Virus record (IMG/VR): IMGVR_UViG_3300029286_000012 | Source: a virus | Length of the DNA stretch: 64,000 bases | Direction: 5' to 3' (one strand) | Made by a program: the position numbers and the translations under genes | Notes under the pieces: generated by a model | The model's database searches: none | What the model saw: only the letters and a program-made list of their open reading frames with translations | Told to the model about the DNA's origin: nothing | In this document: in pieces, positions 1 to 11,597 of the stretch | How positions within the stretch are numbered: position 1 is the first letter of the stretch | Layout of the letters: each line of letters starts with the position of its first letter

Positions 1-570
1 GCTGTGAATAAAGCTATTCACAAAGACGTTGTAGGTTATCTATCATTCGCTAAACAGGACCTGTATGAGTTTGATAGTAAATCATCAAGCCGTGCATTCG
101 CTACTCCACGTAGCTGGTGTTTCGTTAGTGACTTGTTGAATGATGAGGATGACACTGATGCCGATACATTGTTCAATTTGATTAGTGGAGCTGTTGGTGA
201 AGGTCTTGCTGTTAAGTTTGCGGCACACCGCAAAGTTGCAGGTCGTATGCCCGAGCCCTCAGATATTTTGTCAGGCAAAGTGAAGGACCTTGCAGTTAAA
301 GAAATCTCGGCAATGTATTCATTGACTATTTCAATGTGCTATGAATTGCGTGATGCACTTGAGAATAAGAAAGTGGACAGTAAGAAGTTCCACGAAATGG
401 CTGATAACTTCTTTAACTACATTATGGCAAACTTTGAGACTGAGTTGGTTGTAATGGGTGCGAAGATTGCATTGAAAACATACAAGTTGCCGATTGAGCC
501 AAGTCAATTGAAAAACTTTGATGAGTTTCATAAGAAATACGGCAAGTACATTGTGCAAGCTGGTGAGTGA
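1..570 (+). CDS. MoxR-like AAA+ ATPase, C-terminal part (5'-truncated by window edge)
   Basis: FATPRSW sensor motif typical of this AAA family; lies just upstream of a vWA/metallopeptidase gene, its usual partner. Confidence 0.75.
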   Translation, partial: AVNKAIHKDVVGYLSFAKQDLYEFDSKSSSRAFATPRSWCFVSDLLNDEDDTDADTLFNLISGAVGEGLAVKFAAHRKVAGRMPEPSDILSGKVKDLAVKEISAMYSLTISMCYELRDALENKKVDSKKFHEMADNFFNYIMANFETELVVMGAKIALKTYKLPIEPSQLKNFDEFHKKYGKYIVQAGE

Positions 571-5766: not shown

Positions 5767-6372
5767 ATGCACTACCACTATGTTGATATAGGTACCAGTA
5801 ATTTTGATACAAGCGCGGAGTTTGCTAAATCTGATCCTTCAATTAATGTATTACTTGTTGAACCATTAGACTTTTATTTAAATTCTCTTAAAGGAAATAA
5901 TGTTAAATTGTGTAATTGTGCAATAAGTGATATTGAAGGAACATCAATTATATATTTTTTACCTGAAGAATATATTGAAAAAACGTTCCCCATGCCAGAT
6001 AAATTTTGGTTAAAAGGATGTAATAAATTAGATGAGCCGCATCAACTGGTATTATCAGAATTACAACAGTTATCAATAGACCCGAGTGTTATTCATCAAC
6101 AAGAAATTAAAAAAATAACATTCGATACTTTATGCAATGAATTTGATATAACCTCTATAGGTAGATTACAGATTGATACAGAAGGATACGAATGTCAGAT
6201 ACTTCCATCAGTGATTCAAAAAATAAAAAATGGCATGAAAGTACAATCATTGTTTGTTGAGAACAATAACAACTCGGATACAATAAAAATAGAAAAATTA
6301 TTTACACAATTTACTGAATTAAATTATACACGAACTAACCATTTAATGGATGTAGAATTGACATTAATATGA
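5767..6372 (+). CDS. FkbM-family methyltransferase
   Basis: VDIG, LVEP, NCAISD and LQIDTEGYE motifs. Confidence 0.8.
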   Translation: MHYHYVDIGTSNFDTSAEFAKSDPSINVLLVEPLDFYLNSLKGNNVKLCNCAISDIEGTSIIYFLPEEYIEKTFPMPDKFWLKGCNKLDEPHQLVLSELQQLSIDPSVIHQQEIKKITFDTLCNEFDITSIGRLQIDTEGYECQILPSVIQKIKNGMKVQSLFVENNNNSDTIKIEKLFTQFTELNYTRTNHLMDVELTLI

Positions 6373-7268
6373 AACAATACAAAGAATTATTACAAGATAT
6401 ACTAGATGACGGAGAGATTAAAGATGACAGAACTGGTGTTGGCACCTATAGTGTTTTTGGACGTCATATTCGCTTTGATTTGCGTAGGGGCTTTCCCGCA
6501 GTCACTACTAAAAAACTTGCTTGGAAAGCTTGCGTCGGTGAGCTTCTCTGGTTTATTGAGGGATCTAGTGATGAACGTAGATTGGCAGAACTTACCCACG
6601 GTAGTAGTGAAGGAAAAGTTACTATCTGGACACCAAATGCGCTTGCACCGTATTGGAAACACAAAGCAAAATTCGAAGGTGATCTCGGTCGTGTCTACGG
6701 GGTACAATGGCGTCACTGGAACAAGTATCGCACAGAGAAAGACATGGGCAAAGCACACAAAGGTGGTACACGCCTCGCAGTTGACAAGATTGAAGTCGAC
6801 CAATTGGCAAATCTCATTAAAGGGTTAACTGAAGATCCTAATGGGCGCAGGCATATACTAAGTGCCTGGAACGTGAGCGAGTTAGACGAAATGGCTTTGC
6901 CCCCTTGTCACGTTATGAGTCAATTCTATGTTAACAAAAATCGTGAACTTTCTTGCCATATGTATCAGCGTAGTGTTGATGTTTTCTTGGGTTTACCTTT
7001 TAACATTGCTAGTTATGCATTACTTACACATCTATTGGCACATCACTGTAATCTAAAAGTAGGTGAACTTGTAATTAGTACAGGTGATACACATATCTAC
7101 AAGGATCACATTGAACAAGTTAAAGAACAATTAACACGTGAATCTTATCCATTACCTACATTGATGTTAAATGCGTCAAAGACTAATATCTTTGAAATCT
7201 CAATGGAAGACATACATTTAGAGAACTATCAAAGTCATGGCCCTATCAAAGCAACAATGGCAATCTAA
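6369..7268 (+). CDS. thyA: thymidylate synthase
   Basis: DRTGVGT, ELLWF, ALPPCH, YQRSVDVFLGLPFNIASY, GDTHIY. Confidence 0.97.
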   Translation: MKQYKELLQDILDDGEIKDDRTGVGTYSVFGRHIRFDLRRGFPAVTTKKLAWKACVGELLWFIEGSSDERRLAELTHGSSEGKVTIWTPNALAPYWKHKAKFEGDLGRVYGVQWRHWNKYRTEKDMGKAHKGGTRLAVDKIEVDQLANLIKGLTEDPNGRRHILSAWNVSELDEMALPPCHVMSQFYVNKNRELSCHMYQRSVDVFLGLPFNIASYALLTHLLAHHCNLKVGELVISTGDTHIYKDHIEQVKEQLTRESYPLPTLMLNASKTNIFEISMEDIHLENYQSHGPIKATMAI

Positions 7269-7569
7269 AGAAGAATTCACTAGACCCAAATATCAGGTAC
7301 AAGTATCTGATATCAGGGGAGAATCAGTATCTATTACTCAAGTAGTACATACTATTAGAATGGGTGATGTTGAAGATCCTGATTTGTTTGTAGCACACCC
7401 TATATACGAGTGGCAACAAACAGAAGAAGGTAAGTGGATAATGGAAAACTCTAATCCCGCACCCAGTTGGCATCGTAACAATGACCTATACGATTATAGT
7501 TATGTATATCAGATTAGAGCATATCTAACACACAAACAATTAACATTTTGGAAATTAAAATATGAGTAA
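7237..7569 (+). CDS. hypothetical protein, distant member of the F-x-L-[RK]-W family
   Basis: ends AYLTHKQLTFWKLKYE. Confidence 0.7.
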   Translation: MALSKQQWQSKEEFTRPKYQVQVSDIRGESVSITQVVHTIRMGDVEDPDLFVAHPIYEWQQTEEGKWIMENSNPAPSWHRNNDLYDYSYVYQIRAYLTHKQLTFWKLKYE

Positions 7570-7600
7570 TATATTAGTTACAGGCGGATTGGTAAGATAA
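7562..7600 (+). pseudogene. orphaned original 5' end of the epimerase gene (MSNILVTGGL)
   Basis: encodes the same ILVTGGL Rossmann start as the gene at 8426, then a stop; sits directly before the endonuclease insert. Confidence 0.75.
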
Positions 7601-7622
7601 ATAAAGTAACAAGGAAATTGTT

Positions 7623-8429
7623 ATGATTATTTACACATTGTATTTGAAAGAACATACTATAACAGGATTAAAATATCTAGGCTATACTAAAAATGATATA
7701 ACAAAGTATAGCGGATCCGGAAAATATTGGTTAAGACACCTAAAAATTCACGGGTCAACCCACAAGACTGAGATACTTTTACAGACAACCAACAAAGAAG
7801 AAATAAAAAGTATGGGAAGGTATTATAGTAATTTATGGGATGTTGTTAATGCCAAAGATGAGGCAGGAAATAAGATATGGGCAAATTTAAGAATTGAAGA
7901 AGGTGACGGTGGTGCTGGGTATATTTTCTCGGAAGAAGATAGGAAAAAAATTAGTGATAAATCAAAGATAGCATGGGCTAATGACCAATCAAGAGAAAAA
8001 CGAATATTGTCTATAAAAGAATCACTTAATAAACCTGAAGTTAAAGCTAAAATTGGTGAAACAAGTAAAAGAACACTTGCTGATCCAGTGACTAAAGCAA
8101 AATTAAAAGCATCAAGTAAAAAAACTTGGAGTGACCCCGTATTGCGAGAAAAACATAGCGTAATTCAATCCGAAGTTCAAAATAGAGAATCAGTCAAGGA
8201 AAAGAAAAGGGCGGCGGCCATCAAAAACTGGGGTGATGAGAATATTAGAAAAACTAGAATTGATAGAATGACAGACCAAACTATATACACTTTTGAAAAT
8301 ATTAAAACTGGTGAAAAAATTAAATCAACGAGAAAAGAATTAGTTGATAGATATAATTTAAACAGAGCACACTTATCAAAAGTTATTACCGGTAAAGCAA
8401 ACTCTATAAAAGGATGGAAGAAATTATGA
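7623..8429 (+). mobile_element. free-standing GIY-YIG (Seg-like) homing endonuclease gene
   Basis: N-terminal YTLY...KYLGYT and YSGSG; NUMOD3-like basic helical repeats; C-terminal HTH-like LSKVITGKANSIKGWK; own late box GATAAATA at 7596-7603. Confidence 0.8.
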
Positions 8430-9394
8430 CACGCATTTTGGTCACAGGAGGTCTAGGACTTATAGGACATAACGTAGTAGATAGATTACAACGTATGGGG
8501 CACCGTGTTGCTATTACTGATATACGAACTAACTATGGTATCATCCCGCAAGATGAAATTGACTATCTAATGACAGAAAGGTTGAAGAAAATTCAACCCG
8601 GTAGTATCCATGCGATTGACATTTCTAGTGAAAGTATTGATTGGTTATTTGGTAAATATAACTTTGATATTGTAATTCATATGGCTAGCTTTCCGAGACA
8701 AAAAGTTGTTAATGCTAATCCAACTATGGGAGCAAAAACAATGATGGAAGGTCTATTGAATTTGTGTGAAGTAAGCAAGAAACATAAAATAAAGAAATTT
8801 GTTTATATCAGTAGTTCAATGGTATATGGTGACTTTAAAGATGATGTAACAGAAGATTATAACTGTAAGCCACAGGGACAGTATGGCATTATGAAACTAT
8901 CAGGTGAGCATATTGTTAAAGACTATAGCCGTCGTAATTGTTTCAGTCACACTATCATTCGTCCTAGTGCTGTGTATGGTGAACTAGATGTTGAGGATCG
9001 TGTTATTGCAAAGTTTATGTTGACTGCGATGCGTGATGGAGTATTGAATGTTAATGGTGCGAATGAAACATTAGACTTTACTTATGTTGAAGATGCCGCA
9101 GATGGCATTGTTGGAGCCGCACTAAGCGAGAATACAATGAACAAAACGTATAACATCACTAAGTCACATAGCAGAACATTACTTGATGCCGCAAACTTAG
9201 CAGTAAAGTGTGCAGGTAAAGGTACCATCAATGTTAGAGATAAAGACGCTGACTTCCCTAGTCGTGGTGCATTAAACATTGATGCCGCCCGTAGAGACTT
9301 TGGATATGATCCTAAAGTAGATGTAGAAGAAGGCTTTCAAAAATATTATGATTGGCTTAGTACATCAAGTTTTTGGCAAGATAAAATAAAATGA
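8426..9394 (+). CDS. NAD-dependent nucleotide-sugar epimerase/dehydratase
   Basis: TGGLGLIG, ISSSMVYG, YGIMK (YxxxK), DFTYVED; ATG 8426 overlaps the endonuclease stop. Confidence 0.92.
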   Translation: MTRILVTGGLGLIGHNVVDRLQRMGHRVAITDIRTNYGIIPQDEIDYLMTERLKKIQPGSIHAIDISSESIDWLFGKYNFDIVIHMASFPRQKVVNANPTMGAKTMMEGLLNLCEVSKKHKIKKFVYISSSMVYGDFKDDVTEDYNCKPQGQYGIMKLSGEHIVKDYSRRNCFSHTIIRPSAVYGELDVEDRVIAKFMLTAMRDGVLNVNGANETLDFTYVEDAADGIVGAALSENTMNKTYNITKSHSRTLLDAANLAVKCAGKGTINVRDKDADFPSRGALNIDAARRDFGYDPKVDVEEGFQKYYDWLSTSSFWQDKIK

Positions 9395-9600
9395 ATGAAT
9401 TAGAAACTGCACTAAAAACACATGATTGGACTCTAGCTGGATATAAATCTAGAATCAATATAGACAAGTTGATGAAAGAACATCCTGACCAATCAAAGGC
9501 ATTGTGGGAACAGTATTGCCCATGGTCTGTTACTAATGGTGGATATATAGCTTGGGCAAAAAATGCAAATCCCTCACTTTGGTCTAGCAAGACAATATAA
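9391..9600 (+). CDS. small hypothetical protein
   Basis: ATGA-coupled ORF between epimerase and aminotransferase. Confidence 0.6.
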   Translation: MNELETALKTHDWTLAGYKSRINIDKLMKEHPDQSKALWEQYCPWSVTNGGYIAWAKNANPSLWSSKTI

Positions 9601-10621
9601 GAATATAGGTGAAGAGTTGCTTGATGCAACTCACCGTGCCCTCAAAGATGGTCAACTTGTAGGTGGTCATTATACCCGATCGTTTGAAGAATGGCTGAAA
9701 CATCGTACTAAAACAAAGTATGTAGTAACAGTTCATAGCGGCACACAAGCACTTGAAATTATCGCAAGATATAAGAAAAAGAAACACTTAGAAACATTTA
9801 AAAATACTCCTAAGATTCGTATTCCTAATTTAACATACCCGGCAACACTAAACTCATTACTGACTGCAGGATGGGATGTAGAGTTAGTTGACACAGATAA
9901 GAATGGTGTTATTGATGTAGAGAATAGTCTTAAGGGATATACTTGTGTAATGGGTTATGCAGGTCGCAAGCCCTGGCCTATTGCAGGATATGCTAGTGCA
10001 AATGCAGTGATTGTAGATGGGGCACAGCATTGGTTAGTTTGTGACGGTGATGTTGGTAGTGGTATGTCTATCAGTTTTGACCCCACAAAGAACTTACCTA
10101 GCTCAGGTAATGGTGGTGCGATTGTCACGAATGATGAACAACTATACCTATATGCCGCAACACATAGAGATAATAACAAACCTGCATTCCACGATGTAGG
10201 AACTAATAGCAAGATGAGTGAACAAGATTGTGCTCAGATTATGGTTCGTGCAAAGTACATTGATGAGTGGCAAAACCGTAGAGGTGAGATAGCAAAGTAC
10301 TGGTGCGAGAAGTTTAAAGAACTACCTTTACGTTGCCTATCAGATACCAAAGATCCTCACGCACATCAAAAGTTTGTAATGTACATGGATGATAGAAATA
10401 GATTACAATCATATTTAAAAGAACACGGAATAGATAGCAAAGTTCATTATGAATATGTACTAGGTGATTTACCCACTGGCCAAAGATTAACAAAGCCGGA
10501 TTTATTAAGCACTAGTGTAATGCTTTCTAGGGGAGTAATAAGTCTGCCCATGTACCCTGAATTAACAGACGAAGAAGTAAGCTATATTTCGGATAAATTA
10601 AAATTATTTTTTGATAAATAA
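9563..10621 (+). CDS. DegT/DnrJ/EryC1/StrS PLP-dependent sugar aminotransferase
   Basis: SGTQAL, VDGAQ, SFDPTKNL (PLP lysine), GNGGAIVT, SLPMYP. Confidence 0.92.
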   Translation: MQIPHFGLARQYKNIGEELLDATHRALKDGQLVGGHYTRSFEEWLKHRTKTKYVVTVHSGTQALEIIARYKKKKHLETFKNTPKIRIPNLTYPATLNSLLTAGWDVELVDTDKNGVIDVENSLKGYTCVMGYAGRKPWPIAGYASANAVIVDGAQHWLVCDGDVGSGMSISFDPTKNLPSSGNGGAIVTNDEQLYLYAATHRDNNKPAFHDVGTNSKMSEQDCAQIMVRAKYIDEWQNRRGEIAKYWCEKFKELPLRCLSDTKDPHAHQKFVMYMDDRNRLQSYLKEHGIDSKVHYEYVLGDLPTGQRLTKPDLLSTSVMLSRGVISLPMYPELTDEEVSYISDKLKLFFDK

Positions 10622-10625
10622 CTTT

Positions 10626-11084
10626 ATGTGGATACTATCAATACTACCCGAAGCCGCAATACATACAATCTTTGGATTGGGTATTTTGGGCACAATAGCA
10701 GGATTCGTCCTAGGATTTATTCCTTTTGTTAAAACCTATAAACTAGCAATACAAGTCATTAGCTTGATTGTATTAGTATTGGGTGTATATCTAGAGGGCG
10801 GCCTAGCCGACTATAAAGAATGGGAACTTAGAGTTAAAGAGATGGAAGCTAAAGTAGCAAAAGCTGAGGCACAATCTGCAAACAAGAATGCTGAAATACA
10901 GGAAAAAGTTGTAGAAAAGACTAAAGTTATCCGTGAAAAGGGCCGTGACATTATCAAATACATTGATAAAGAAGTCATTAAAAAAGAGGAAGTTATCAAG
11001 TACATTGAAAACTGCCCTGTTCCTAAAGAATTCATAGACTTGCATAATCAAGCCGCTGAGTTGAATAAAGGAGCATCAAAATGA
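10626..11084 (+). CDS. inner-membrane spanin-like (Rz-like) protein
   Basis: N-terminal TM segments, coiled coil and a C-terminal Cys; followed by a lipoprotein; start at MWILS just after a late box. Confidence 0.6.
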   Translation: MWILSILPEAAIHTIFGLGILGTIAGFVLGFIPFVKTYKLAIQVISLIVLVLGVYLEGGLADYKEWELRVKEMEAKVAKAEAQSANKNAEIQEKVVEKTKVIREKGRDIIKYIDKEVIKKEEVIKYIENCPVPKEFIDLHNQAAELNKGASK

Positions 11085-11344: not shown

Positions 11345-11597
11345 TAGCATATTATTAGCATTGTGTTTAATGACGGGTTGTGCAACAGTAGATAACTATC
11401 CAGTATATGTAGAAGCACAAAAGTCATTGAGCAGAGATGCTACCGTAGCAGAAGCCGCACGTATAGCAGCCTTAACTGAAATGGTTAAAAGTTCAGACAA
11501 CGAAGTAAAGATACAAGCTATCAAAGCACTACAAGAAATCCAACGTAGTAAGCGTCAAGTTATCATCCAACAACCCAAAGGTATGTTTGGAAACTGA
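11325..11597 (+). CDS. putative lipoprotein
   Basis: hydrophobic signal and MTGC lipobox; ATG 11325. Confidence 0.55.
   Translation: MITLQNSSILLALCLMTGCATVDNYPVYVEAQKSLSRDATVAEAARIAALTEMVKSSDNEVKIQAIKALQEIQRSKRQVIIQQPKGMFGN

Follow-up and report, generated by a model that had tools for sequence, protein, structure and literature searches.

The closest described systems are the mobile endonuclease open reading frames (ORFs), or mORFs, of fungal mitochondria, which create hybrid genes (PMC3630166). They insert with a foreign C-terminal copy, the native C-terminus being left as a relic, and are described for atp6 of Allomyces macrogynus, for atp6, atp9, cox2 and nad3 of Glomus, for atp9 of Rhizopus and for cox2 of Mortierella (PMC3630166). 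The locus presented here is in a phage, in a stretch of 64,000 nucleotides (nt) of IMG/VR record IMGVR_UViG_3300029286_000012 (one strand); this whole stretch is referred to as the window, and all positions are given within it. A cassette with a candidate homing endonuclease gene is inserted near the start of a sugar epimerase gene, which continues intact from a second start. We consider it highly probable that a Seg/I-TevI-like GIY-YIG homing endonuclease cassette invaded the epimerase coding sequence and supplied a self-sufficient replacement for its start.

As in the fungal cases, an intron-less endonuclease ORF is situated within a coding sequence and comes with a second version of the gene end that it displaces. 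This version is divergent, mostly by synonymous changes, and is the one then expressed; the native relic stays beside it and matches the endonuclease-free relatives. The fungal elements replace the 3′ end, often as an in-frame fusion, whereas here it is the 5′ end that is replaced, in a phage, and the endonuclease gene is a separate ORF with an ATGA overlap. With the 5′ end replaced, the cassette has to provide a start codon and a ribosome site as well, and it differs further in having its own promoter-like box. What is new is the 5′ end, the phage setting and the separate overlapping ORF with its own signals; the kind of element is known from fungal mitochondria.

Free-standing homing endonucleases of phages are usually said to be harmless because (i) they are seated between genes, (ii) they reside in an intron or intein, or (iii) they split genes into workable pieces. 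The locus would represent a fourth route in phages, the replacement of the start of a gene, and its support is a large natural series in which approximately 70 sites are empty and 9 backgrounds occupied, with endonuclease identities as low as 46%. Our literature searches turned up no report of a gene start being replaced in a phage.

The Seg (GIY-YIG) and Mob (HNH) elements of T4-type phages resemble the cassette in several respects: a modular GIY-YIG enzyme with NUMOD3-type DNA binding, a patchy distribution, a late-promoter-like box, possibly a hairpin over the ribosome site, and signals of the downstream gene located inside the endonuclease gene, which favor retention. Embedded signals of this type are known to favor endonuclease retention (PMC2988022). 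The T4-type elements are either intergenic or occur in split genes, such as Aeh1 nrdA-mobE, T4 39/60-mobA and gene 43 of phage 25 (PMC2988022). Those found within genes split the host gene into two working polypeptides, whereas here no gene is split, and ten codons occur twice, one of the copies being dead; the review of these elements describes no duplicated gene end, since its text contains no word beginning with "duplicat" (PMC2988022). In ICP1 phages, nuclease genes are found at boundaries of genetic exchange, and the insertion site described here is likewise an exchange boundary; a term search of the text of the ICP1 study found no gene-end replacement (PMC10448857).

I-TevI of the T4 td intron provides the best structural match of the catalytic domain. 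It also has a conserved enzyme gene as its target and is expressed from a late promoter. The difference is that no ribozyme is present here, and a replacement gene start takes the place of splicing in keeping the insertion harmless.

Empty and occupied epimerase loci

An IMG/VR search with the epimerase yielded 80 loci. Approximately 70 of them lack the endonuclease and have the epimerase directly after the upstream gene; these contigs have ATGAGTAATATATTAGTTACAGGCGGATTAGGACTTATTGGACAT / MSNILVTGGLGLIG contiguous, with a single start. The empty loci of the window's own lineage read ATGAGTAATATATTAGTTACAGGCGGATT-AGGACTTATTGGACAT, i.e. MSNILVTGGLGLIGH uninterrupted. The original prediction, made from the letters of the window, had expected this contiguous sequence in endonuclease-free relatives, which is what the approximately 70 loci contain; both starts together, the finding that would have spoken against it, were looked for and occur in none of these relatives. 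The empty alleles place the insert between codons 10 and 11 of the NAD-dependent sugar epimerase, within the DNA encoding the TGGxGxxG motif, and thus in the conserved Gly-rich Rossmann motif that had been proposed as the place of insertion. The two starts, the late box and an ORF whose stop overlaps the second ATG are also present as first described (Table 1).

A large protein collection contained 289 homologs of the endonuclease ORF. Every one of those with 88, 84, 76, 60, 54 and 46% identity is encoded directly before an epimerase, and homologs at approximately 36-39% identity are located at unrelated places. In nine of nine distinct endonuclease-bearing backgrounds, the cassette has a stub of the epimerase start immediately to its left, and a new start is present; the stub is spelled as the local lineage's own start (MSN.., MN.., MY.., MNIIV.. 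or MK..). The left neighbors of the occupied sites vary (the 110-amino acid [aa] gene, a hydroxylase plus a 78-aa gene, thyA, or Endonuclease_NS), and one occupied slot adjoins an epimerase only 36% identical to that of the window. Since approximately 70 relatives are contiguous and all nine occupied backgrounds have both a stub and a new start, the layout is not due to chance. The stub can decay, as those of the two most distant lineages (L098 and L099) have a common 5-nt deletion.

Among known phages (INPHARED), megablast of positions 6300-10700 gave no match, and tblastn found only distant relatives of the endonuclease (<43%) and the epimerase (<28%). Empty alleles of the distant L095-type epimerase were not found in the IMG/VR search.

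Table 1. Features of the occupied epimerase locus and its surroundings in the window
Feature	Position	Strand	Remarks
Upstream 110-aa gene	7237-7569	+	Stop overlaps the native epimerase ATG (ATGAGTAA); left neighbor in most relatives
Native epimerase start stub, MSNILVTGGL + VR-stop (MSNILVTGGLVR-stop), 12 codons	7562-7600	+	TAA at 7598-7600
Inserted cassette, 864 bp	7591-8454	+	Delimited by comparison with contiguous alleles; boundary ambiguity 1-3 nt
GATAAATA late-promoter-like box	7596-7603	+	20 nt 5′ of the endonuclease ATG; putative promoter
Possible small hairpin (GUAACAA/UUGUUAU)	7606-7628	+	Spans the AAGGA ribosome site and AUG of the endonuclease gene; weak
AAGGA ribosome site of the endonuclease gene	7612-7616	+	
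Free-standing homing endonuclease gene, 268 aa	7623-8429	+	GIY-YIG fold, helical NUMOD3-like middle, I-HmuI-like DNA-binding end (predicted)
AAGGATGG, Shine-Dalgarno-like, for the epimerase	8410-8417	+	Within the conserved C-terminal K-G-W codons of the endonuclease family
Cassette-borne replacement epimerase start, MTRILVTGGL	8426-8454	+	ATG overlaps the endonuclease TGA (ATGA)
Intact NAD-dependent sugar epimerase/dehydratase, 322 aa	8426-9394	+	TGGLGLIG + YxxxK; phrog_540
DegT/DnrJ/EryC1-type aminotransferase	9563-10621	+	Pfam; downstream of the epimerase, same transcription direction

The cassette contains, in order, the promoter box, a leader, the endonuclease ORF, and the new start with ten epimerase codons; no second copy was found in the window. 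The stub reads ATG AGT AAT ATA TTA GTT ACA GGC GGA TTG GTA AGA TAA, and its homology to the endonuclease-free alleles runs to approximately position 7590. The new start reads ATG ACA CGC ATT TTG GTC ACA GGA GGT CTA GGA... (MTRILVTGGLGLIGH / MTRILVTGGLGLIGHNVV) and continues to the end of the epimerase gene, whose product matches PF01370 Epimerase (Pfam, 1e-37, residues 4-244) and whose ratio of nonsynonymous to synonymous substitution rates (dN/dS) is approximately 0.1.

Codon comparison confirmed that the two copies have synonymous differences in six of the seven ILVTGGL codons (stub/new: ATA/ATT, TTA/TTG, GTT/GTC, GGC/GGA, GGA/GGT and TTG/CTA, with ACA common to both), the longest identical run within these codons being 5 nt. 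The stub shows 0/20 differences from the empty alleles, and the cassette-borne copy differs from every empty allele at 2-5 of 21 positions; the two copies therefore have different histories. A transposon target-site duplication was rejected, as the upstream copy equals the local empty alleles and the downstream copy differs from all of them, in several lineages.

The sequence (G/C)ATAAATA before the endonuclease ATG is kept in all nine endonuclease-bearing backgrounds. Most cassettes end with ...AAAGGATGGAAGAAnnATGA, having a Shine-Dalgarno-like sequence in the last endonuclease codons and a stop that overlaps the epimerase start. The cassette end differs in L098 and L099, where the ORF ends with KGWRIPE or KGWRINE and the overlap with the epimerase is different (ATGAGTAG in L099). 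In L098, whose endonuclease has 54% identity, the epimerase start as called is 44 nt inside the endonuclease ORF but in a different frame (L098:2117-2160); it gives a 14-residue N-terminal extension, the true start being uncertain. The left end of the cassette (xAAGATAAATAAAGTAACAA) is nearly identical in L095 (2974-3000) and the window (7591-7612); given that their endonucleases are only 60% identical, this end is conserved more strongly than the coding sequence. L075 and L092 carry a different, unrelated leader (ATAGGCATAAATACAT...), with a hairpin of different sequence at the same place. As for the hairpin in the window, its z value was -2.2, and in most lineages the hairpin was not significant when compared with shuffled sequences.

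The endonuclease, its signals and the proposed mechanism

An AlphaFold model of the endonuclease built on 36 homologs (mean predicted local distance difference test score, pLDDT, 85.7) has an N-terminal domain of the order beta-beta-alpha-beta-alpha. Foldseek ranked the I-TevI catalytic domain (1mk0) first, weakly (E = 0.055), and VIA-align superimposed residues 2-95 on 1mk0 with Z 9.2 (root mean square deviation 2.6 Å, 86 of 97 residues); the other GIY-YIG proteins (PD-T4-3, UvrC and Slx1) scored below I-TevI. The motif residues comprise IIY (2-4), YLG (18-20), R38/H39 and an invariant N88. A separate DNA-binding region is indicated by residues 205-268 of the model, which match the DNA-binding end of I-HmuI (Z 8.8, VIA-align), and by NUMOD3 (PF07460), carried by many homologs; the window protein itself has no Pfam match to NUMOD3. 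The predicted architecture is that of a Seg/I-TevI-type modular homing endonuclease. The endonuclease alleles are all intact (267-271 aa), and strong purifying selection acts across the entire ORF (dN/dS 0.09-0.18).

The K-G-W motif is nearly invariant in the family (G264, W265), also in members that do not adjoin an epimerase. The ribosome site of the epimerase thus arises as a side effect of a motif of the family.

The window has 15 copies of the box GATAAATA where 6.7 are expected, an enrichment not reached in any of 100 shuffles. Thirteen of the 15 copies are on the + strand, and most are located 5-35 nt before the ATG of an ORF, including structural genes (examples at 11596, 16246, 38950, 47257, 57262 and 63916). 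Of the T4 late-promoter octamer TATAAATA there is 1 copy against 12 expected, a strong depletion. GATAAATA is probably the late box of this phage group; the box of the endonuclease gene fits this class by its placement, and motif evidence of this sort suggests a late-promoter role for it. As no terminator-like site was found on the + strand between the endonuclease gene and DegT, transcripts from this box should read into the epimerase and DegT genes.

According to the proposed mechanism, the cassette would be self-sufficient. Its late-type promoter box and ribosome site would serve the endonuclease gene, and the Shine-Dalgarno-like sequence in the K-G-W codons, the overlapping ATG and ten respelled codons would give a whole epimerase from the second start, leaving the native start as a dead 12-codon stub. 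We infer that the enzyme would cut endonuclease-free epimerase alleles near the Rossmann motif and that the break would be repaired from an endonuclease-bearing genome. The left homology arm would consist of the stub and upstream DNA, and the right arm of the epimerase body; with these arms flanking the cassette, the endonuclease and the replacement start would be copied in together. A simple deletion of the cassette would inactivate the epimerase, because the gene's only start and ribosome site are inside it.

A cassette that provides the sole start of a sugar-modification gene would be hard to lose. It would also create a sharp exchange boundary and leave lasting marks, such as cassette-type starts. 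For annotation, the signature to expect is a short "orphan" ORF repeating the start of the next-but-one gene. The combination of a Rossmann-motif target and a modular I-TevI-like enzyme could interest researchers working on nuclease specificity.

Whether this arrangement is an evolved, portable strategy of gene-start replacement and not a one-off accident is a further step, which we regard as possible but on the doubtful side. If it is, the promoter, the hidden ribosome site, the start and the ten codons may let the endonuclease occupy the most conserved motif of the gene. The 30-nt stub may be the only left homology arm common to phages with differing upstream genes, and such an arm may allow homing into epimerases as little as 36% identical. 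I-TevI autorepresses at its own promoter; by analogy, the stub, situated 5 nt upstream of the late-promoter box, may be an operator for autorepression.

Mobility, descent and alternative explanations

In an epimerase tree built without the first 12 codons, the endonuclease-bearing alleles are scattered, the supported branches force at least four changes, and the window stands alone among 16 empty relatives. The element is present in some and absent from other close relatives at one site, and there are signs of lateral spread. Synonymous divergence (dS) of the endonuclease is lower than that of the epimerase in all three pairs for which both genes were measured. Between the window and L088, the endonucleases are 84% and the epimerases 75% identical (aa), with dS 0.86 vs saturated; for L088 and L092, dS is 0.71 for the endonuclease vs 1.45 for the epimerase. 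The endonucleases of the window and L095 are 61% identical, whereas the host genes are 36% identical (aa).

The occupied locus L075 and the empty loci L015/L016 are 99.9% identical over the 1222 nt up to the stub. When L075 was compared with L013 (of the L015/L016 group), the epimerase 3′ of the cassette was only 87.5% identical, and two of the few mismatches were in the last 7 nt of the stub. This is a sharp exchange boundary at the insertion site, such as would be expected if an endonuclease had initiated gene conversion with long co-conversion on one side. L075 and L013 are otherwise 99% identical; their one other large difference is a 626-nt indel with a methyltransferase-like ORF upstream of thyA (L075:2313-2937 vs L013:3750-3807).

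Several observations weigh against the proposed explanation. First, no co-conversion tract sets the surroundings of the window's cassette apart from the empty relatives: over the first 360 nt downstream, all close relatives show 92-99% identity, whether the endonuclease is present or absent. Second, the endonuclease genes of the window and L075 (87.6% identical, nt) are as diverged as their flanks (88-90%), which vertical descent explains as well. These two observations imply that some of the descent has been vertical. Third, each base of the window's new ILVTGGL copy is present in some endonuclease-free allele, and no immunity-specific bases were found in these codons. The upstream and downstream copies differ at 7 of 21 positions in the window (4-9 of 21 overall), and random allele pairs differ at 4.46 ± 1.53, with 9% of the pairs reaching 7; on this comparison, the new start differs synonymously to an extent that natural alleles also show, only moderately above random pairs. 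Fourth, the endonuclease ORF had no Pfam match even at E = 10, and a profile of the 36 homologs found no GIY-YIG match among PDB sequences; the homologs reach only E 0.04-0.05 against GIY-YIG or SegE_GIY-YIG in Pfam, and PHROGs gave only a weak "homing endonuclease" match (phrog_314, E = 0.0025). Finally, an invariant Gly65 occupies the expected place of the catalytic Glu, and an invariant E92 follows N88.

Since Pfam does not recognize the ORF, the GIY-YIG label rests on the predicted fold, which upholds the initial assignment through its similarity to I-TevI; because the catalytic Glu is not confidently placed, nuclease activity is only inferred. The proposal of a recoded replacement start stood in part: the start is a divergent synonymous copy, and its spelling does not go beyond natural variation. 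As its differences fall near that variation, the new copy may be just foreign or older in descent. The new spelling could plausibly have been selected because it resists cleavage or because it keeps the repeats from recombining, and interruption of the site may alone be sufficient.

The first two of these observations also favor an old, vertically inherited insertion that has lost homing, its patchiness reflecting repeated loss, either by recombination with endonuclease-free phages or by recombination between the two start copies; the protein would then be retained for another role (e.g. regulation) or only as the carrier of the epimerase start. Descent is suggested, too, by the stub deletion common to L098 and L099, the oldest lineages, and the endonuclease may have been lost from L053, which has a cassette-type start (MTS...) with another gene in the slot. 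We nevertheless judge this explanation unlikely, because it is opposed by the lower dS of the endonuclease in the three measured pairs, by the 61% identity of endonucleases whose host genes are 36% identical, by the sharp boundary between L075 and L015/L016, and by the strong purifying selection on an entire ORF.

In the slot of L053 there is no endonuclease gene; it holds a 241-aa DUF6071 protein (L053:4279-5040) starting with MSKLLITGG, which resembles the epimerase stub. The start of the L053 epimerase, ATGACCAGTATTTT... (MTSILVTGGL), resembles the cassette-borne starts of L088 and L092, and the sister locus L052 has the native MSN. In L053 the endonuclease may have been replaced and its start left behind.

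The boundary between the upstream gene and the epimerase is a general insertion hot spot, since other genes sit there in some relatives. It holds a methyltransferase in L037, a 62-aa ORF in L062-65 and L078, and the DUF6071 protein in L053, and the duplicated start could accordingly be a by-product of illegitimate recombination of any gene cassette at such a site, not driven by an endonuclease. This is very improbable: the inserts of L037 and of the L062 type lie clean between genes, without a stub, whereas the stub is present at the same codon in all nine endonuclease backgrounds, and cassette and stub also occur where the left neighbor is quite different. The methyltransferase of L037 (4192-4779) has 195 aa, and the 62-aa ORF was found at L062:724-912 and L078:4810-4998, no stub being present in any of them.

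A connection of the stub to the downstream gene through splicing of RNA or protein, or through translational bypass, with the second start unused, has virtually no probability, as nothing beyond the common orientation of the two copies favors it, Rfam found no RNA family in positions 7000-9500 up to E = 1 (hence no intron), only 31 nt of the insert are non-coding (the endonuclease ORF taking up 807 of the 864 bp), the ORF and the stub are in different frames, and the stub ending is lineage-specific (in the window the stub stops after 12 codons, and L075 has a 33-codon run-on). Splicing is also unneeded, because the downstream ORF has a complete Rossmann N-terminus. The prediction that there is no room for an intron core, and that the insertion stays harmless without splicing by means of a new N-terminus, agrees with these data. 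A group I intron or an intein was rejected on the same Rfam, length and frame grounds, and a gene in pieces was rejected because the downstream ORF is complete at its N-terminus and the stub only repeats residues 1-10.

Two further sequences were noted. On the minus strand of a 364-kb contig (L060:2951-3208) there is a match of 47% identity to residues 1-92 of the endonuclease, a fragment or relative of its N-terminal domain; it is situated upstream of thyA, which is on the other strand. In the window, a 423-aa ORF (819-2090) is named "HNH endonuclease" (phrog_1314) in PHROGs; this name looks misleading, since Pfam shows DUF2201 metallopeptidase-like and VWA-like domains.

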